DNA of 53,921 nt, the filler included, from Sluysia triapertura (Eukaryota), in assembly GCA_046118255.1 (NCBI GenBank). It is 4 parts of 4 records of this genome, joined end to end, with 100 filler letters (N's around TTAATTAATTAA, not from the genome) between each part and the next. Parts side by side here need not be neighbours in the genome. Positions count along the whole stretch, not along the records: positions 1 to 11,016 come from JBJNIA010190119.1; 3 more parts are not named here. One strand, 5' to 3'. Position numbers and translations under genes: made by a program. The notes beneath the pieces are model-generated. The model was not told the origin of the DNA. It saw nothing but the letters and a program-made list of their open reading frames with translations, and made no database searches. Shown here one piece after another: positions 1-42,778 of this stretch; the first letter of the stretch is position 1; each line of letters starts with the position of its first letter.

Positions 1-689
1 ACTACTAAGAGAATTAATGGAAGATAATAAAGTTATAGATAACCATAATGAAAGTAAAATTATAGATATTACAAATGGCAATGATGATTATACTGAAGAT
101 AAACCCGACTACATAATTGATTTAAATAAAAATCCACATATTGAAACTGAAGATAAAGAAACAAACACTTTTAAAAGGCCAGGTAGACCTAGAAAGAATA
201 ATGATGTCGAAACAATAATATCAACCCAATATAGAGAAAACCTATTTATTTAACTAAAATTACTTATAAGAATATAAAAGAAACTTTAAGTACTAAAACT
301 ATAATTTACACTTTATTATCTAATAAATTTTCTAACTTTGATAAGTATAAGACACTTTTACCTGAATTAAAGGAATACAAAACTGCATTAACCAAGATAA
401 TTAAAGTTATAGAAGAAAAATATAAGAATACAGACTTAAATGACTTTATAGATAATGGTCAATATAAAAACATAATAAATAAACAGATTAACGCTGGAAT
501 TAATAAAAATATACTTAAGATAATAATGACATATATAATATTTCAATGTAATAAAGCGACACTCTTAACTAAAGAAAAAATAGACAAGGTTATAAATTTT
601 ACTGATAAGAAATTAGGTACTCTAATTGAACAATTAGGAGAATGGAAAAATATTATAAAAGACAAAGATAAAGAAAAAGATAAAGATTA

Positions 690-1075
690 GGAATCTATTC
701 TAATGAAGATATCCAAGCGCTTGGCACGAGATCTTATTTCCAATTAAAAGATCTAAAGTACTTACTGATATAGTTGACAAAGCAATAGTAGAAAACGATG
801 GTAAAATAAATTTTGAATTACTATTAGGACCTGACCATTTTAAGAAAGCAGCACATAATACTTTAAAATAAATTTGGGGAAACTTTTTAGTTATAGGTCA
901 AGCTTTTTCAGGTTTAATAGAAATATATGTAATAATTAAAGTAACTGCTCTCATAATCTCTCAAATATTCTCAGTTGTAGGTATTTACAAAATATCAGGT
1001 TTTACTTGGAAATTAATAATTGGTTGTTTTCCATTTTTACCTAAATTCTTTTTACATCATCATGCTCATGCTTAA
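690..1075 (+). pseudogene. C-terminal (pre-TM/TM) remnant of a chuvirus-like viral glycoprotein (env-like)
   Basis: Manual translation with 1 frameshift and 1 stop: GIYSNEDIQ/AWHEILFPIKRSKVLTDIVDKAIVENDGKINFELLLGPDHFKKAAHNTLK*IWGNFLVIGQAFSGLIEIYVIIKVTALIISQIFSVVGIYKISGFTWKLIIGCFPFL. Matches the recalled chuviral G C-terminal pattern GIY.xED..I.FP...L..I / W..F..(F)G..SG..(G) followed by hydrophobic helices. Confidence 0.68.
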
Positions 1076-3262
1076 TTAAATGCTTTAAAGAAAGAGAAAA
1101 AACAAACTGAAGAAATTGCATTACAAACAATAGATATTGAACCAGTCAAAAAAGAAAAACAAAGTCTATATCAACCACCTCCAAGAAATTTAGTTTACAT
1201 GATATGCGCTAATAATTATAATAGCGCACGTAGACGTGAGAGTTAATGGTAGAATGTTATCTGCATTGGTTGATACAGGAGCAGTGGACTCATTAATAAG
1301 TGAATCGCTATTAACTAATAAAGAATTAAACAACATTCATATTTAACAGGAATAACTGGAGATGAAAGTGAAATTCTAGGAACATTAAAAATATTATGCG
1401 AAATTGGACAAAACAAGATTGAAATAAAATGTAGGGTAATGAGAAAATATCCAGAAGATATGATATTAGGCATGGACGTATTATCACAATTAAAAGGAGT
1501 CTCGTTAGATTTTAGCAAAGCAAAATTAATGGATAACTATACAGATAGACCAATTGATGATGATGTTATATTAGAAGAACCACGTTGGTTATTAAAAAGA
1601 ACAGAATGTATAATACTAGGGAAAACCAATAATTTAAGAAATGGGCCAATAATGTTTATAGCTTCAAAAAATAACCGAGAGAAATTAAATGTAGGAATTG
1701 CGGATTCAATATGCAGAATTAATGAAAGAAACATACCAATAAGAATAATAAATTATACAGATGAAAATAAATGGCTTTATGCAGGTACTAAATTGGCAAA
1801 AATAGTTAATGATAAATTACAAACACAAACAAACATGGTATCGGATGATAAACAAAAAAGTAAAAACATAAAACTTCAAAGAAACATTGAAGATGAAGAA
1901 GATTCTGAGGCGATACAAATAAAGAATAAGAATCTAACTAAAAAAACAAAAAGAAACATTATACCCTTGGGCAATTGCAAGAAATAAATATGATATTGGA
2001 GATTCTGTCATAATAAAATATGAAATTCCAATATTAGAAGATAAAGTAATTAGAAAAAGCCTTACAGAATTCCATGATGCAATCAACAGGAGATGAAAGA
2101 TCAAATAGATACAATGAAAAAGGCTAGAGTAATTAGTCCAAGTTTTTCTGCATTCTCATCACTAGTATTACTAGTTAAGAAAAAAAGATGGAACTATGAG
2201 ATTTTGTATTGATTTTAGAAAGTTAAATAAATTACAAGAAAAGATGTGTTTCCATTACCAAGAATTGATGAGTTCTTAGATAAATTAGGCAATGCTAATT
2301 ATTTCACTACATTAGATTTGCAGAGTGGCAAATCGAGATAGCCGAGAAGGATAAACATAAAACAGCATTTTCATGTGGAGATGAACTATATGAATGCCAA
2401 AAGATGCCGTTCGCACTAACAGGTGCACCGGCGACATTTCAAAGATGTATGAACTTCGTACTATCTGGTTGTAAGAATGTTATGGTTTACATCGATGACA
2501 ATCATATTTTCAAGAAATTGACACTCATGTAGTAAATATTGATAACACACTCAAAAGCCTTGAAGTGGCAAGATTAAAAATTAAACCAACTAAATGTGTA
2601 TGGGCAGAAGAACAAGTTGAATTTTTAGGGCATATAGTTTCACACAAAGGTATAAAACCAAATCCTAAAAATATAGAAAAAGTTGTTAAATTTCCACCGC
2701 CAGATAATGTAAAGAAAGGTCAAAGTTATCTAGGATTAGCCAACTATTATAGATTTTGCAAAAATAGCTAGATGTTAACACAAAAGAATGCAACATTCAA
2801 ATGGACAGAAGAACAAACAAAAGCATTCAAAAGATTATTTAACAAAATGGCCAGAAGCACATCCAATACCTAACCAGAAAGCTGAAACTGTAGCTCAAAT
2901 ATTAGTAGAAAAAATATATAGATAAGAACTCCAAGGAAATTATTAACTGACCAGGGAACCAATTTTACTAGTGATGAAATAAAATCTGTTGCAAATATAT
3001 TTAAGATTTTAAAAATATGTACATCACCATACCACCCTCAGACAGATGGGTTAGTAGAAAGATTTAATAGAACATTAATAAATATGTTACAATCATATGT
3101 AAATGAAAGACAGAAAGATTGGGATTTATATGTATCACCATGCTTATTTGCGTATAGAAGCTCAGTGCATCCTGCTACTAATTTTACACCATTCTATCTT
3201 ATGTACGGAAGATACTCAAACATGCCAGTAGATTTAGATTGGATTCAACCTTCATTTAATAT

Positions 3263-4123
3263 ATGGAAACTCCGGAATACGTAACTTTTATGAGAAAAAA
3301 TTTACAAGATGCTGGTTTACAAATGCGTTACACTCAGGAAACTTATAAAGATAATTATGATAAAAAAGAAAATGAACATAATTTCAAAGTAGGAGATAAA
3401 GTATTAGTAGATTATCCAATAGCGAAACCAGGATATTCTCCAAAACTACATAAACCATTTAAAGGACCTTATGAAGTAATGAAAACAACTTCTACTAATT
3501 TATATATAAAGAAACCTAATGATATGAATGCAGAAACTTTCGTTGTACATGTTAACCGATGTAAATTAGCACCTACTGACGAATACAATCTAAGAGATAG
3601 AAAAGTTACAAAAAGTGTACTAAAGGTTAAACCAAGAATAAAAGATAGAGACAAACCATCAAAGTCATCGAATATAGTGCCAAAACTAAATGCGGATACA
3701 AAAATAACAGATACAAATATAACAAAAGATAAACCAATAAGTACAATAAATATGATAACTTCTTCTTTTAACATACAAAATCATTTAGTTCAAAGCATTA
3801 AATTTAATCAGAGATGGGTACGAGCAGTTATAGATACAGGCTCAAATAACACTATTATAAATTATAATATCCTAAACGCATTAGAAGTTAGTATGCTTCA
3901 ACAGGCAGGATTAAGATTATTTGCAGTAGATGGCACATATATTATATTTAATGGTGTATTACAATGTCAATTAACAATTTTAGATACGGACCTATTCGAA
4001 ACAATATTAGCTTGGGAGAGATGTCCATATGATGTTATATCAGGAATGGATGTATTAAATATATTAGGAACTTGGGGTTCCATATCTAGGAAGAAGTTAA
4101 TTAGCGATAAGGCTGCCGCATAA
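3263..4123 (+). CDS. Integrase C-terminus (GPY/F) fused in frame to a second retropepsin-like aspartic protease
   Basis: The 286-aa ORF contains 'FKVGDKVLV...KGPYEV...VVHVNRCK', then 'RWVRAVIDTGSNNTII...CPYDVISGMDVL' (DTG active site plus an ILG.D-like motif). Confidence 0.8.
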   Translation: METPEYVTFMRKNLQDAGLQMRYTQETYKDNYDKKENEHNFKVGDKVLVDYPIAKPGYSPKLHKPFKGPYEVMKTTSTNLYIKKPNDMNAETFVVHVNRCKLAPTDEYNLRDRKVTKSVLKVKPRIKDRDKPSKSSNIVPKLNADTKITDTNITKDKPISTINMITSSFNIQNHLVQSIKFNQRWVRAVIDTGSNNTIINYNILNALEVSMLQQAGLRLFAVDGTYIIFNGVLQCQLTILDTDLFETILAWERCPYDVISGMDVLNILGTWGSISRKKLISDKAAA

Positions 4124-4920: not shown

Positions 4921-5078
4921 TTATGATACTAATGGTTTATTTATTTTATTATATTTATAAATATAATTTTATTTATAGGTTGTTATCGCAACCATATAAA
5001 ACAATTTAAAATTATTTAAAAATAAATTAAAAATCTTATTTTCCAAAGAAGAAAATATTTTTCGAAAAATGAAAATTC

Positions 5079-5172
5079 GCTTCTAGAAGTAGAATATAAG
5101 CTTCTAGAAGTAGAATATAAGCTTCTAGAAGTAGAATATAAGCTTCTAGAAGTAGAATATAAGCTTCTAGAA
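5079..5172. repeat. Perfect tandem repeat, 21-bp unit GCTTCTAGAAGTAGAATATAA x4.5
   Basis: Units start at 5079, 5100, 5121 and 5142, with a partial unit at 5163. Confidence 0.97.
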
Positions 5173-5222
5173 TTTTCCAGAACATTCCATCGATTTTCAT
5201 TGACTGTTGATTAGTATATAAA
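5164..5222 (+). promoter_or_regulatory. Five-unit heat-shock element followed by a TATA box
   Basis: cTTCt aGAAt tTTCc aGAAc aTTCc (5164-5188) is a perfect alternating nGAAn/nTTCn run. TATATAAA lies 26 bp downstream. Confidence 0.7.
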
Positions 5223-6214
5223 CTACATCAGTTTAATGAGAATCGCCATTTTCAAAAATCACTTTAGTTTGATTTAATTTGCAGCGTCTTTGTTAACGAA
5301 ATTGTAAATTGACTGTTTGCAATTCGCAGTTAATTCAAAAATTGAAAAATATCTACTGGACTTCATTATTGGTAAATTATATGTTTATAGGGTCAATTTC
5401 ACCTTTATAAGTTGAAATTATAAAATATACGTAAATAAGTCCCGATATATTGACGGTTAATATCAACTTAAAATATTGTAGTATTAGATGAAACACTCTC
5501 GGAGCATTAATCTGTAAAAATAATTCTTTATATTCCCTTATCTTACCACTATTATTATTTAGACTTTTGTGTTTTATAAATAAAACGTTTTTTGAATTAA
5601 TTAGTTCTTAAAAGTTTAAGCATAAATTATTAAAGTTTTTGGAGAAAATTATACTCTTGAACACTTGTTAAGACCCTATCCACATAACAATTAGATAAAT
5701 TATTAGCTTAATTAGTTACAGAAACGCCATCTTCACGACATAAAACGTTTACCGTAACCGGACACTGCTGCAGGTTAAGAATTAGAAAAACCACAGCACT
5801 AAATTAAAATTATTAATAAATATAAATTAAATATTTTTTTCATTTATGATAAATTAAATGATCTTAGAAAGATTTACTTATTTATCATTGTAAAAGAAAC
5901 CCCCGTATTGTTTTAAATATATATTTTTTAAAGAATCCCTATTTATTTACTTAAAATCATTATTTGGAGTTCCCTTGTAAAATTATTTTTGATTATCACT
6001 CTTAGAAAATAAGAAATGCATTTTTAATTGTATGTCAAGTCACCTCTAGTTTTTTTGGAAAGATTATCGTGTTCTTAATATATCTTAAGATTACTGTAAC
6101 TTTGACAGTAACATGGTACAGTTACAAGCTATACCATGTTGTTGGAATAAAGGCCTAAAGTGCCATGGAATAATCACTGTGTAATTGACTACAATGAAAC
6201 AAAATTGTTAGTCG

Positions 6215-6245
6215 GAGCTGATAGTTTAGTGGTCACAGCATCGAA
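6215..6245 (+). pseudogene. 5' half of a tRNA-Ala-like gene split by a non-LTR retrotransposon
   Basis: GAGCTGA TA GTTTAGTGGTCACAGC ATCGAA matches 30752-30781, including the upstream flank aaattgttag(t/a)c. G3 is present. Confidence 0.8.
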
Positions 6246-8363
6246 TTGGTGCTTTATGGATTTTTCAACCTGTTCTCCCATGAAGTATTGTAACAACTCT
6301 GCGCCGGGATCCAATAAAATCACATTCGAACAAATCAAGAATGTTGATCCCAAAGCGAAGTTTCTTTTAATTTTCTTCAATAAAATAAAACGTTCCCAGA
6401 CATGAAAATCTTTCCTTATCCTTATAATTAAACCTAATTAATTTTATCTGGTCCATTGTGGAGACCTCATCAGTACCAATCAAGCTGCTATTCTTCGCTC
6501 TGATGGTTGCACTGAACACAATTTCCTTCATTCTTTACAAGAAATTATTGAGACTCTTAATTATAAAAAAATCCTACAAAATCCACTCCATGTCATCTTC
6601 TTGACTTGGCTAACACGTTTGGATCCGTGCTCCACCAATTAATTTGGTACACATTGTCTTGTATGGTTCTTCATCAATCCACCATTAATCTTATCAGAAA
6701 TCTTTACGATTCTTCGTCGACTCAATAGAAGTGTAACAAACTCTTGACGGATCCTGTAACAATTAAATATGGCATCAACTATGGTTGCCCAATCTCGGTG
6801 ACCCTGCTTTGCATCGCGATCGACTATTTATTTAGGTCTTTCACTGAAGAGGATAATATATACATTTATGGCTCCTCTTTTCCTCCTTACCTTGCCTATG
6901 ACAAAGCCTTAATAGCTATTTCCAATGGTAAGCTTCAGCAAAGGCCAAGTCAGTCAATTTAATTTTCTCCTTAACGAGTTCTCCTTATACATTGATAATG
7001 TGCCTATTCCGACTATGAAAGATGGTGATAAAATCACGTACCTATATGTTCCTTTTCGCGGGAAACTTGAAAAAACAGAACCTTAATTCACTTTTGGAGG
7101 AAAACCTGCAGTTTTCTCAAAAAATTGAATCTTAGTAGTAAAACAAGATTCTTATATAGCGCAACTTTCTTCAACTGGACAAATATGCGCACCTTCAAAC
7201 CTGGTGGTGCAAAATTCACACTGCCTTTATTAACTTATTATGTGTCGTTTTTCTCTCCTCCAATGATGACAATCAGATTAAATTATCCTTTAGTTGCGAA
7301 TCCTTATGTGGCACCATTTTTTATCAGTTTCATAAAGATAAAATTGGCAATAGTAATACTTTGAAATTCCTCAAATGTCAAGGTCTTTTGTTAACTGTCT
7401 CATGAAAAGTCCACTTTCGGACAGACCGTTCTCACTTCAACTTAGCGATTCTTGTTAGGTTTTCATGCTCAAGGTACGCAACAATATCCTTAAATTAAAT
7501 TTCTCGCCACATAACTTTCGCCCTCACAACCTTTAGCTTGCCGCTGGTGTCACTTTGAGAAAGAATCTATTTCTCATGTCCTTTGTTTGTGTCCTCACAC
7601 TCACACCAGCCGAACTGTGTGAGACAATAAATTTCTTGAATGCCTGGTTGAGATTCTTTATCGGAAGGGCTTTCCTTACGCCGATTATTGGGAACACTCT
7701 GCGCCCAGATATTCAAACCCGGTTTACTAATTCGACACAACTTTTTTTCATTGATTTTAAATCTCCAATTGATATCTAGGAGAACTTTAAATCTGCGCGG
7801 AACTTGTCTAAATATGAAGATTTGCGTGAAAAATTGCAAATGCAACTTGAGTGTCAGGTTTTCCTCGATACCTTTGTTGTGGGTGCCCCTGGTTTCTGAG
7901 ATCTTGATAATGACCCTCTTCTTAAATCTTTGGGTTTTCGCAAGACAGAAATTAAGACTCTAGCTCGTCAGTGTGCTCAGTTTTCCCTAGAGACTTCTTT
8001 TAACATCCTCAAGTTTCCTGTTTAACTAATTTATTTCCTCTTGATGTTTGAAATTTTTCCTATAAATTATTTTATTTATATTTTTTTTCTTGTTCTGGTT
8101 CTCCTATCACTTTTTATTTTTCAACTTTCTTTTTTCTCCTTTTTTAATCATTTCCTCATTTCAAATATTTTTCTCTCTTCACAAACTGCAGTCGTCAATT
8201 CAACCAAGATCCAATGACAAGATATACTTTTAATTTTTGGCATTAACTTTGAATTGGAGAAATTAACATTTTCTTGATCCCACTTTATATTATTTTTGAT
8301 TATTTATACTTTTTTATACTTTGTAACTTGTTTTAAAAAATAATTTTGAAATTCAATTTAATT
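6246..8363 (+). mobile_element. 5'-truncated, degenerate non-LTR retrotransposon of the R2 group (NeSL/Utopia-like, restriction-like endonuclease)
   Basis: RT region 0 'SAPGSNKITFEQIKNVDPKA', then 'DGCTEHNF', 'LDLANTFGSV', 'KYGINYGCPIS', 'LAYD'. RLE motifs 'LRPDI', 'FIDFKSP', 'KYEDL' and 'FVVGAPGF*DLDNDPLLKSLG' (cf. VGALGSWDP.N...L..LG). Pyrimidine-rich 3' UTR. Flanked by CATCGAA duplications at 6239-6245 and 8364-8370. Confidence 0.88.
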
Positions 8364-8411
8364 CATCGAACTGCACAATGAGAGGCCCGGGTTCGATTCC
8401 CGGTCAGTCCA
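8364..8411 (+). pseudogene. 3' half of the split tRNA-Ala-like gene (anticodon region CTGCAC, T-arm, acceptor strand)
   Basis: CATCGAACTGCACAATGAGAGGC CCGGG TTCGATT CCCGG TCAGTCCA, then TTTT and gaagtcta, the same tail as after 30822. Confidence 0.85.
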
Positions 8412-8434
8412 TTTTATGAAGTCTAATAATGTAT

Positions 8435-11016: not shown

Positions 11017-11116
11017 NNNNNNNNNNNNNNNNNNNNNNNNNNNNNNNNNNNNNNNNNNNNTTAATTAATTAANNNNNNNNNNNNNNNNNNNNNNNNNNNN
11101 NNNNNNNNNNNNNNNN
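11017..11116. other. Assembly gap spacer (N44-TTAATTAATTAA-N44)
   Basis: Identical 100-nt construct with stop codons in all six frames occurs three times. Confidence 0.98.
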
Positions 11117-16690: not shown

Positions 16691-17307
16691 TTAATCACAC
16701 ACACATTCTTTAGATGATTTATGGCCTGGAATCGATGATTCATTAGATGAAGCAAGCGTCATTGTAGGCAAACACTTCCAGTATGAGAATGTTTCGTTGG
16801 CATTATATATTTGGTCAGGTTTCAAATCATTTGCTTGAACGTATTCCTCAAATTCAATGCAGAATTTAGTAGCTGCCTCAAAATCTCCGTTAAGGCGTTC
16901 TCCATGGATTGAAAGCTCATGACGTTTCTTAAATCTGGTTAGCCATCCAGGGGGTGCGTTAAAGTCGTCTTTCAATCCCAATGAATCATAAAAGAACTTA
17001 TCTTTACGCGCAATTACAGAGCCTGTAATTGGCATTCCTTTTTCTCGTTTTTGATTAAACTATTTAAGCATAGTTGTACCTAAATCTGCATACAATGACA
17101 TTTTCATACTTTTCCGAGTTGAAGGATCTGCATTACTATCACAAACTCTTGTAAACTCCTCCAACTTTTTCTTTGCTTAATTATATCGCTAACTGTTTGA
17201 ACACCCACTCTGTAATATTTCGAAAGTTTATTTACCTTTTCACTCATTTCAATTAACTGAAGTTTTTGTTTCACAATCAGTACGACTCTTTTGCGATTAT
17301 TTAACAT
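16691..17307 (-). mobile_element. pogo/Tigger (Jerky/CENP-B-like) transposase N-terminal remnant
   Basis: 'RKRVVLIVKQKLQLIE...YRVGVQTVSDIIKQR' (psq HTH), 'PITGSVI...FNAPPGWLTRFKKRH', 'QIYNANET..YWKCLP', 'GHKSSKE'. Frameshifted and truncated early in the DDE domain. Confidence 0.9.
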
Positions 17308-22240: not shown

Positions 22241-24022
22241 TAATAACAAATTTTAATTTGTATACATTAAATTAATAAAATTTTAAATGAATTTAATTTC
22301 TCTTGTTTTATTAAATCATATTTGAATAATTGTAAACAAGCAATATGGCGACCAAAATTGTAGTATATAAGTATTGAATTTTGGAAGCCATATTGCAAAA
22401 ACAATACAATCTGATCAGCAAGGAAATTTTTCAAATCAATCAGATTCATGAAAGTAAGGTAATTTTCGTTAAGTTTTTCGTCCTATTTTAATTAGGAGAA
22501 CTTAATATCTTACGTAATATATTATCAATCATCCTATCCCTTAACGGTAAGGCTAATTTGTAATTTTTAAAATCTTCAGCATTAAAGAAATTGTTAATAT
22601 TCTATAAATACAATTTAAAATATTATCGTTATTATATTTTTTGATTTATAATTTGTGCATCATACTTTAAGTGAACATATTTCGAGTGCATTAAAATATA
22701 AGGATTTTAGTCTCCGTTCTAAAATATTTTAGCATTTGATAGACCGTAAAAAGGCTAGCTCAATCTTCATATTATTCGCTAAACCGCACTAAGATTCAAG
22801 TATAAATTCTGAATTAATTGAATTAAGTATTTAGCTTAGTAAATACCGCAAAACGTTACTTATTATTTTCACTTGAATCACTACGTGACTAATCTAGGAA
22901 AATCCTAATTGGATGCCATCTTCATAGGTATAAGCTGTGTTTATTAGCGAATTGACCTCTAGATATTTTGCTAGGTTAAATTAAATATTTCGTAGAAAAT
23001 ACCAACAAGAATTTCACATTTGGAAAGCACATTTACATTTCGCTAGTCTTAATCATTAATTACCATACTCTTAGGAGGTACATAAAATCCACTTAACGTT
23101 TTAAATTATTTGTTCACGACCATTTTAAATAGGTGGATTAAAATCTAATTAAAATAAATCATTTCAATTAAAGTTCATTGCAACTTTAACGTTATAATAT
23201 AAGTCTCCATATTATTTCTGCTATTCTTTTTTTAGTTTGAATAAACTTTGATTAATTTAGCTTCGTAAATGATTATAAATTATAGAGCTATACTTAATTA
23301 AAATTAATACTAGATTGTGTTTTTGAAAAGGCTTTAAAGTACAAGCCTTTAAAATACTGTGTTGTAGTCCTACTTTAAATAAGGAATAAAAATATATAAT
23401 AAATAAACTACAAATTTGTAGTAAGTGCTTAGATTAAGTAATAATAAAGTCGATCAGATGACCTCATTAATCTTAAAATCCTGTAAGCAAACCCTTAACT
23501 GAGTAAGTCTTGTACTATAGACGAGTTCTTTATAATTTTAAATAAAATTTATGTTAGGTAAGTTTTTGAATAAACCACAGCAATATGATCAAAGGCCAAC
23601 ACAAAAAAGTGTTTAAAACGTCTGCATTTCAAAGATGACATTAGTTGACTTATATGAGTTCGCAGACGAATCTGGTGGGATATAGTAGTCATGTAACTAT
23701 TTATGATTATTTGTTTTAATATTGAACTTTTAATGAATTTGAATATTCAATATAAGAATTATAAATTCGATTTTTTATTTCTTTAAAAAGACTGAGTATA
23801 TAAGTTATTAAAAATATATTCAAACCAAAAAAGTAATGTTACACAGATAATTCTTTAGAAAACTAAAGTTATTGGATGGATTTAATATTTGAAAACAGTA
23901 AATTGAAAAATTACATTGTAAAGATAATTATATTAATTTATTACATTGATTTTAAGTCAATAAAATCTCTATTAATTTATTGTAATTATTAATTACAATA
24001 TTTAATATTTAATAAACTCTTT

Positions 24023-25252
24023 TTGATAATGTTAAATAATTTGCGTAACGAAATTTATAAAGCATTAACAAGTGAAATTAATGTGATACAAGAAGAAAGA
24101 AATTCAACAAAATTAGGTAAACGAAAAATATGTCATGATTATTTTTCATTTATTAGTAAAAAGTGCCCCAAATTAGCAAATGTTAATTTATCAACGCTTC
24201 TGCCGAATGAATTGAATATGGAAACTTTTTTAAATAGTCTTGGAAAGTGTTTTAAATGTGCAGGATGTGATAATTATTTTAATATTGAAAAGGAATGTGA
24301 CCAAGGTCATTTATTTTGTACAAAATGTATCAATAGTGGATTAGTTTATTGCCAGTGCTGTTGTAAATTTTTAACAATGATTGATTTAAAAGATAGTACT
24401 ATAGCGAAATTACTAGGAGCAGCTTTATTTAATACTTGTTCATTATGTGGTATAACAGTAAAAAAAAGTAGCGATATGAATTATCATTTAAAATACAAGT
24501 GTTGCTGCAATATTACACCATGCGATTATTTGTATATTGGTTGTAATTGGAGCGGTTCTGGTGATGATCATAAAAATCATGTAATGAATTGTTCTTTTAA
24601 AAACATAAAAATTAAAGATATTTATAATGCGTTAATTGCCTCCACTGAATACTATAATATTACATGTCAAAAACAACTTATGACCTTTCTAGATTGTGTT
24701 CGAAGAGAAAATTTTGGGTTAAGACTAATGCATTTTACTGTTAGTTTGTCATTTGATAAATATTCAACAGAAAACAATAATTTTGAAATAACATTTCAAA
24801 GTTCAACATTCCCATTTCCGCTAGAACGTAGTATTCAATTTTCTCTGTTGTTTTTTGTTACATGGAATTTACTAAACGAAGATAATGTTAAATATTACTA
24901 CAAATTACATTCAGAGAATTCGAATGAATACGATTTAAAGTTTTGCTTGATAAATTTTAAAACTAATCTTGATAAAAATTTTAATGGGATTTCGGATTTA
25001 TTTCACAGCTATGTACACAGAAAAGTTGGACAATCACAATCATTACTTTATGAAGTCAGTACTTGCGAGCACTTTTCAGTTAGCCGATGGAAAGAAATTA
25101 AAACATTAGACATAGAAGTATTAATTTTATATAATCACTTAATTATGCTTTCCAAGCATGAAATGACAAATAATCCATATTTAGAAAATATGATTTCAGA
25201 TGTATTACGCTTATTACCTAATTTGAGTCTTAGTTCTGTGACTAATTCTTAA
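24023..25252 (+). CDS. Cysteine/histidine-rich RING/TRAF-type zinc-finger protein, CYHR1/ZFTRAF1-like (likely start ATG 24029); intronless
   Basis: 409-aa uninterrupted ORF in DNA where long ORFs are rare. 'ECDQGHLFCTKC...CQCC...CSLC...HLKYKC..ITPCDYLYIGCNWSG..DDHKNHVMNC' parallels CYHR1 'CTNGHLMCAGC...CPNC...CGFC...HQKEEC..VTQCKYKRIGCPWHG...HEAAC'. Confidence 0.78.
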   Translation: MIMLNNLRNEIYKALTSEINVIQEERNSTKLGKRKICHDYFSFISKKCPKLANVNLSTLLPNELNMETFLNSLGKCFKCAGCDNYFNIEKECDQGHLFCTKCINSGLVYCQCCCKFLTMIDLKDSTIAKLLGAALFNTCSLCGITVKKSSDMNYHLKYKCCCNITPCDYLYIGCNWSGSGDDHKNHVMNCSFKNIKIKDIYNALIASTEYYNITCQKQLMTFLDCVRRENFGLRLMHFTVSLSFDKYSTENNNFEITFQSSTFPFPLERSIQFSLLFFVTWNLLNEDNVKYYYKLHSENSNEYDLKFCLINFKTNLDKNFNGISDLFHSYVHRKVGQSQSLLYEVSTCEHFSVSRWKEIKTLDIEVLILYNHLIMLSKHEMTNNPYLENMISDVLRLLPNLSLSSVTNS

Positions 25253-29768: not shown

Positions 29769-29868
29769 NNNNNNNNNNNNNNNNNNNNNNNNNNNNNNNN
29801 NNNNNNNNNNNNTTAATTAATTAANNNNNNNNNNNNNNNNNNNNNNNNNNNNNNNNNNNNNNNNNNNN
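29769..29868. other. Assembly gap spacer
   Basis: N44-TTAATTAATTAA-N44. Confidence 0.98.
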
Positions 29869-30751: not shown

Positions 30752-30822
30752 GGTCTGATAGCTCAGTGGTAGAGCATCGACTCCGCAGACGATGGTCCCG
30801 GGTTCGATCCCCGGTCAGTCCA
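30752..30822 (+). tRNA. tRNA-Ala-like gene or pseudogene (anticodon CGC in an imperfect arm), inside a ~160-bp repeated cassette 30679-30839
   Basis: GGTCTGA TA GCTC AGTGGTA GAGC A TCGAC TCCGCA GACGA TGGTC CCGGG TTCGATC CCCGG TCAGTCC A, then TTTT. A and B boxes intact. U70/A73 and the two-copy consensus GGGCTGA/TCAGTCC give the G3.U70 alanine identity. The anticodon arm is imperfect, so it probably does not decode. Confidence 0.75.
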
Positions 30823-42678: not shown

Positions 42679-42778
42679 NNNNNNNNNNNNNNNNNNNNNN
42701 NNNNNNNNNNNNNNNNNNNNNNTTAATTAATTAANNNNNNNNNNNNNNNNNNNNNNNNNNNNNNNNNNNNNNNNNNNN
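42679..42778. other. Assembly gap spacer
   Basis: N44-TTAATTAATTAA-N44. Confidence 0.98.

Follow-up and report, generated by a model that had tools for sequence, protein, structure and literature searches.

The first 4 kb of the window, by which we mean the whole 53,921-nucleotide stretch of Sluysia triapertura DNA analyzed here (filler included), raise the question of whether the end of an envelope glycoprotein lies directly ahead of the protease of a Ty3/Gypsy element, and whether the two were once parts of a single polyprotein. The analysis presented below indicates that positions 1 to ~4090 are very probably one decayed, internally deleted, envelope-carrying Ty3/Gypsy (Metaviridae) copy of the gag-env-pol type, with env in the same ORF as pol. 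The start of the window falls inside the element, and no LTR pair, primer-binding site or gag was found within the window, nor was a second copy of the element. The coordinates of all features of the element are collected in Table 1.

Table 1. Features of the envelope-carrying Ty3/Gypsy copy, numbered along the window
Feature	Positions	Strand	Basis or remark
Probable pre-env spacer, first piece, with AT-hook-like KRPGRPRK (~175-198)	2..253	+	
Second piece of the probable pre-env spacer, with a candidate helical domain of Bcl-2-like type (~319-678)	235..690	+	
Junction: signal peptide and most of env ectodomain missing	688..692	+	about 1.5 kb, inferred
Env C-terminal remnant, HSV/gB-type (PF24664)	690..1075	+	ectodomain end, membrane-proximal region, TM, second weaker hydrophobic stretch
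Charged cytoplasmic linker ending LVYMI (1190-1204)	1076..1204	+	translation
Aspartic protease 1: DTG at 1272, GMD near 1471	1206..1510	+	split by frame change
Spacer, Ty3/Gypsy reverse transcriptase (YIDD) and connection region	1510..2849	+	RVT_1; several frames, stops
Second deletion point, lacking RNase H and the zinc finger of integrase (~305-330 aa)	2833..2849	+	
Integrase core and C-terminal GPY/F-type/SH3-like module	2833..3610	+	rve, Integrase_p58_C
Aspartic protease 2 (DTG at 3833), following integrase in frame	3743..4084	+	gag-asp_proteas

The envelope remnant and the pol region that follows it

The first-pass annotation had read 690-1075 as a membrane-protein C-terminus with chuviral-G-like motifs, and this was indeed borne out by Pfam: frame 2 of 707-1246, with stops read as X, matched PF24664 (Monjiviricetes_fusion) with an E-value of 5.1e-16 and 58.2 bits, against a curated cut-off of 27. 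The match covered only positions 490-641 of the 653-position profile, which corresponds to the last, C-terminal quarter of a fusogen of class III. The peptide GIYSNEDIQAL, encoded in frame 3 at 690-722, is similar to GxY..D, a motif found in the relatives described below, and the TM helix was located at ~902-958 (Kyte-Doolittle mean 2.04). The remnant was 56% identical to the relative P0002 over 112 amino acids, and a PDB sequence search with it returned no match. It is to be noted that ‘chuvirus-like’ holds as a family resemblance, by PF24664, whereas capture from a chuvirus is at most conjectural, the nearest relatives among the matches listed being envelopes fused to retroelement proteins.

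The annotated course from the charged linker to LVYMI and, after one frame change, to the DTG protease was correct as to that change (frame 2 to 3); however, the reading is broken at further points, namely, by a frame change near 722, by two stops in frame (869 and 1073) and by another frame change just past DTG, at ~1325-1345. The linker and LVYMI are the likely lead-in to a protease cleavage site. The distance from the GxY..D motif to DTG is 194 codons in the window, compared with 193-453 amino acids in the 12 relatives measured. Both Asp_protease_2 and RVP scored above the Pfam cut-off at aspartic protease 1, while the gag-asp_proteas match of the post-integrase domain (E 2.4e-4) was below the curated cut-off. 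The stretch from the spacer through the connection region is collinear with residues 1175-1685 of P0005; this relative also has a protease at the equivalent post-integrase place (2319), its residues 2161-2397 aligning to window 3260-4057. Overall, the window and P0005 are collinear from env through PR, RT and IN to the post-integrase protease, and the best PDB match of P0005 was Ty3-G Gag-Pol (E 3e-121). The order PR-RT-RH-IN, with Ty3-type RT and integrase, was thus obtained from Pfam, PDB and the relatives together, RNase H being deleted in the window copy and present in its collinear relatives. The proposal that env lies ahead of the protease in a Gypsy pol is therefore supported by the Ty3/Gypsy domains downstream, by the spacing and by the natural fused ORFs of relatives.

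The copy itself is inactive, decayed and twice internally deleted. A complete PF24664 ectodomain with its signal peptide is absent from the window copy and present in 11 relatives, in all of which an internal signal-peptide-like stretch precedes the ectodomain and 454-482 amino acids separate the mature N-terminus from the GxY..D motif; since all 11 agree in this, ~1.5 kb appears to be gone at ~690. Env homology begins at that very point, with about 470 residues and the signal peptide missing relative to the relatives, which upholds the ectodomain deletion that had been proposed there, and no match to the ectodomain or signal peptide of relatives was found in window 1-720. Across the second junction, the alignment to the window jumps from residue 1685 to 2017 in P0005 and from 1630 to 1935 in P0008. 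The RT and integrase of the window contain many stops and many frame changes.

Envelope and pol in one reading frame

With a word-index search, a single longer relative was retrieved, P0002, whose natural ORF leads from the glycoprotein end into a protease. An exhaustive search with P0002 as query produced 548 matches, of which 150 were listed, and 18 relatives (P0002, the best matches and several other long ones) were scanned by Pfam. It should be noted that this selection was biased, because the query carried both glycoprotein and protease domains. PF24664 and a protease were found in one ORF in 13 of the 18, and five of these (P0005, P0007, P0008, P0029, P0079) also contained RT and RNase H, with integrase reached in four of the five. 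In the remainder, the DTG of P0010 was recognized by its motif alone, the ORFs of P0012 and P0017 stopped at the glycoprotein, and P0057 and P0062 were without glycoprotein. A CCHC knuckle was found upstream of env in P0003, P0008, P0010, P0013 and P0079, and Retrotrans_gag in P0013; in P0008 and P0079, one ORF extends from the Gag zinc knuckle to integrase. In the intact relatives, a single frame encodes, in succession, Gag (CA, CCHC), the spacer, the internal signal peptide, the ectodomain and TM of the glycoprotein with its cytoplasmic tail, then between one and several proteases, and finally RT, RNase H and IN. Of the hydrophobic stretches that follow the ectodomain, the first scored above the second in 13 of 13 relatives measured. 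Thus, env lies upstream of pol in the same element, both by the layout of the window and by the 13 relatives in which a single ORF spans env and protease. The single-polyprotein reading advanced in the first-pass annotation is likewise supported, since the five natural, stop-free ORFs with RT join env to pol, and these intact ORFs document that env and pol are one polyprotein in this clade.

For the env C-terminus, a quick tree was computed on 134 columns from 128 rows, comprising the window and 127 of the 150 matches listed; the other 23 were excluded for coverage under 95 of 132 positions. One split, with 98% SH-aLRT, placed the window, 15 of the 16 protease-fused envs and nine short or truncated rows on one side, and 103 mostly stand-alone glycoproteins on the other, with P0002 as the sister of the window (83%). 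The stand-alone glycoproteins, of ~650 amino acids, are unannotated, and their chuviral or insect env identity is assumed.

These results bear on two other identities for the locus. The remnant could derive from another element, as the 3' env of a gag-pol-env arrangement, or from an endogenized chuvirus G, and could have come beside a Gypsy protease by insertion or rearrangement; it is true that, of the 127 PF24664 rows used for the tree, 105 terminate shortly past the TM (stand-alone or fragments), and that EVEs of Jingchuvirales often have Gypsy fragments as flanks, according to the accessible part of PMC10084718. Nonetheless, the closest sequences among the matches listed are protease-fused envs (53-56% identity) and not the stand-alone group, the spacing to DTG agrees with that of the fused ORFs, and the same relatives match best for env and for pol, as seen in P0005 (env 51% identity, RT piece 65%, integrase 66% over 106 amino acids). 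A separate origin of the remnant is largely refuted by the natural fused ORFs, and we consider it very improbable. The other identity, a BEL/Pao element of the Anakin kind rather than a Gypsy element, is more improbable still: the pol of the relatives matched Ty3 best, RT_RNaseH and Integrase_H2C2 were matched, the integrase tail of the window is Integrase_p58_C, and the Pfam scans of the window and the 18 relatives contained no Peptidase_A17, DUF1759 or DUF5641, which we take to be BEL-type families. What would speak for BEL/Pao is P0116, which joins a stand-alone-type G in frame to a protease that, judged by its motifs, is presumably BEL/Pao-like. Anakin elements also share the glycoprotein family, as stated in the accessible part of PMC7642597. 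P0116 is possibly an independent env-protease fusion, with a glycoprotein from the stand-alone group.

The upstream stretch and a candidate Bcl-2-like domain

Directly before the env signal peptide, three of 11 relatives carry a Bcl-2-like domain (P0006 25-122, P0012 1-80, P0017 1215-1325), in which BH1- and BH2-like segments are present. PF00452 (Bcl-2) was matched in all three, with a best E-value of 2.3e-5 and scores under the Pfam cut-off, and the top PDB profile matches of these stretches were Bcl-xL (E 4e-4). A structural model of the P0006 domain (pLDDT 64) retrieved Bcl-2-family titles in 47 of the 47 Foldseek matches listed, all with E-values above 0.1; with the same model, the top VIA matches were BHRF1 and GIV66 at Z 8.0, and 14 of the first 16 rows were of the Bcl-2 family. 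The modeled fold thus resembles that of viral Bcl-2 proteins, namely, EBV BHRF1 (Z 8.0, rmsd 2.8, 94 aligned), grouper iridovirus GIV66, and poxvirus F1L and M11L, with rmsd values of 2.8-3.0 over this group; however, the viral Bcl-2 proteins sit in large DNA viruses, whereas the P0006 domain is embedded in a retroelement polyprotein and is only 10-14% identical to them. Sequence and fold searches agree, and are consistent with a Bcl-2-fold domain in these three relatives. When 7998 longer candidates were searched by profile for further Bcl-2-like spacers, nothing beyond the three input proteins was recovered.

For the window itself, the likeness is fainter. The ORF at 235-687 ranked first among 696 window ORFs when scored with an HMM built from the three relatives (8.7 bits, E 0.075), and seven of 2000 shuffles scored as high (p about 0.004). 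The hhalign probability of this ORF was 1.9%, and it had no Pfam match and no usable Atlas match. A model of the window spacer (pLDDT 59), for which the underlying alignment contained the three Bcl-2-like relatives, gave nothing significant in Foldseek (best E 1.8); in VIA, BAK1 appeared at rank 4 with Z 6.2, five of 50 rows were of the Bcl-2 family, and Z was under 8 throughout. The Bcl-2-like stretch ends in G-E-W, 16 codons short of the ~690 junction. Taken together, these predictions are suggestive only, and tilt modestly toward 235-687 being a Bcl-2-like domain.

The evidence has to be weighed against the idea that env and pol are as described above, while 1-690 is other sequence joined at ~690, its Bcl-2 likeness having arisen by chance. 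No significant match was found for window 1-720, in six frames, among the 150 relatives listed (best domain E 0.007); besides this, the lack of an Atlas match, the low hhalign value and the absence of any near-length Bcl-2-like homolog among 907 candidates all fit foreign sequence, as does the lower GC content (0.225 versus 0.29). Yet, the strand and the A-rich skew are the same as in the env-pol part, and 1-690 holds an AT-hook-like motif and then a Bcl-2-like stretch, each of which is a module found directly upstream of env in relatives. A GRP[RK] motif occurs upstream of env in three of 11 relatives (P0003, P0005, P0009), and a weak tblastn match linked residues 24-44 of P0005 to window 146-208 (38% identity, E 0.26). 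With the first rank in the HMM search and the shuffle result added, a foreign origin of 1-690 appears unlikely, though it retains appreciable weight, and we continue to regard the two upstream pieces as a probable pre-env spacer.

Accessory domains, a proposed route and known elements

Several relatives carry additional domains in the polyprotein. Two or three tandem aspartic proteases lie between env and RT, in one ORF, in P0003, P0004, P0005, P0006, P0009 and P0013. A post-integrase protease is found in the window and in one of the three env-bearing relatives that extend beyond integrase, namely P0005 (~2310-2400); P0062, in which env is absent, also has one (1558-1659). A second signal-like stretch, ectodomain and TM follow integrase in P0005 (2485-2738), P0008 (2254-2568), P0029 (2775-3197) and P0088 (1502-1767); these tails showed no Pfam match, no convincing mutual likeness and no counterpart in the window. 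By eye and motifs, the pre-env spacers also hold what we take to be candidate ubiquitin-like domains in P0003 (~480-555) and P0017 (~1025-1105), and a presumed DEDDh-exonuclease-like domain in P0029 (~115-295). In the literature consulted, neither extra aspartic proteases, including the post-integrase one, nor a second post-integrase membrane protein were found described.

The domain order suggests how such a polyprotein may be handled, its threading topology being deduced from established membrane-protein biogenesis. The polyprotein would thread through the ER membrane, with Gag and the spacer remaining cytosolic; the internal signal peptide would bring the ectodomain to the lumenal side, where signal peptidase would cleave it. 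The single TM would halt transfer, leaving PR-RT-RH-IN on the cytoplasmic tail of Env, and Pol would enter budding particles with Env until the protease frees PR-RT-RH-IN. Since Pol would be carried on the Env tail, a Gag-Pol frameshift would not be needed, and because env and pol form one polyprotein, this assembly route would be unlike that of retroviruses or insect errantiviruses. The spacer would carry cytosolic modules that vary among members, a Bcl-2-fold domain being the module in some of them. By analogy with viral Bcl-2 proteins, such a domain would most likely blunt apoptosis of the host cell and so delay the death of the producing cell. The element is potentially enveloped, although the decayed copy in the window is incapable of any of these steps. 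On balance, and by a narrow preference, we interpret the locus as the fossil of an invertebrate retroelement with a virus-like polyprotein, comprising Gag, a spacer into which an apoptosis regulator of Bcl-2 fold was captured, a class III fusogen that is threaded through the ER and delivers Pol via its tail, and proteases duplicated ahead of RT as well as behind integrase, with a second type I membrane protein closing the chain in intact members. If true, the Bcl-2-fold domain would mean that an LTR retroelement relies on a way of countering apoptosis that large DNA viruses are known to employ, and both the polyprotein and this domain bear on whether non-insect enveloped retroelements act as real viruses. 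The literature searched, which included few subscription papers, yielded no report of an LTR retroelement with a Bcl-2-like domain.

The gene order itself is not new. Nematode endogenous retroviruses (NERV), the subject of a 2022 article by Sacco et al. in J Gen Virol, reportedly have a continuous gag-env-pro-pol ORF. Metaviruses with env between gag and pol, they are cited as such in the accessible part of PMC13524379 (Chary and Hayashi, eLife RP108449), the same source that describes, from Nematoda, Bryozoa and Platyhelminthes, GAG-ENV-POL Ty3/gypsy elements whose ENV is of HSV/gB type, so that the novelty implied for this order in the first-pass annotation is not supported; on that point, since the order is already in print, the window adds one more decayed member. 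Nor is there support for the assumption that this type of glycoprotein is known mainly from Pao elements of arthropods, because 114 arthropod gypsy elements that carry a homologous, Chuviridae-like glycoprotein are reported there. The accessible data of PMC10084718, with no clear Gypsy capture, fit the arthropod-Pao premise, but this is superseded by the later PMC13524379. According to the latter, as far as its accessible part goes, GAG-ENV-POL elements are not monophyletic, and errantivirus activity was inferred from copy number only.

Among published elements, the ‘ancient errantiviruses’ of Platyhelminthes, i.e., six Schmidtea elements (Smed_errantivirus_1-6, 1-215 copies, C1a group; accessible part of PMC13524379), resemble the window in having a Ty3/gypsy pol with env ahead. 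Compared by eye, and with the ectodomain of the window itself missing, the ectodomains of P0003, P0005, P0006, P0009 and P0012 show the motif pattern of the Smed rows, unlike the nematode env rows (accessible part of the PMC13524379 supplement), which differ from the ectodomains of the window's relatives. The window element is probably near the flatworm group. The accessible main text of PMC13524379, figures aside, contains ‘protease’ once, no ‘polyprotein’, no extra proteases and no mention of Bcl-2, and its preprint, in the part accessible, does not mention ‘single ORF’ or ‘in frame’. Anakin BEL/Pao elements and the G-derived EVEs of Jingchuvirales (accessible parts of PMC7642597 and PMC10084718) have the same glycoprotein family (PF24664, gB-like), although the retroelement superfamily of Anakin is different, and the stand-alone glycoproteins fall across the 98% split from the window. 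In sum, the window copy belongs, as an inactivated member, to the gag-env-pol, HSV/gB-type Ty3/Gypsy elements already known, with accessory features that were not found described.

Across the window, GC content is low (20-38% per kb). The sequence has the character of animal DNA, with the ZFTRAF1/CYHR1-like ORF described below and several transposon remnants, such as a Tc5/pogo-type transposase fragment at 16691-17059 on the minus strand (PF03221, E 1.2e-9). A decayed, GC-richer stretch at ~6150-8030 (+) has motifs that suggest a non-LTR element of the type encoding a restriction-like endonuclease; Pfam produced no convincing match for nine side ORFs, of which six come from 6.4-8 kb. The sole Rfam match in the search, at 30752-30822, is tRNA-like with an irregular anticodon loop and has a partial copy at 8386-8429; it is probably a tRNA-derived SINE head. 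A 21-nt repeat occurs in four to five tandem copies at 5071-5175. The filler between parts, at 11017-11116, 29769-29868 and 42679-42778, consists in each case of 44 N, a 12-nt TTAA-type spacer and 44 N. Lastly, an uninterrupted ORF of 419 codons at 23993-25252 (+) resembles ZFTRAF1/CYHR1, with RING and TRAF zinc finger (Atlas 0.95).
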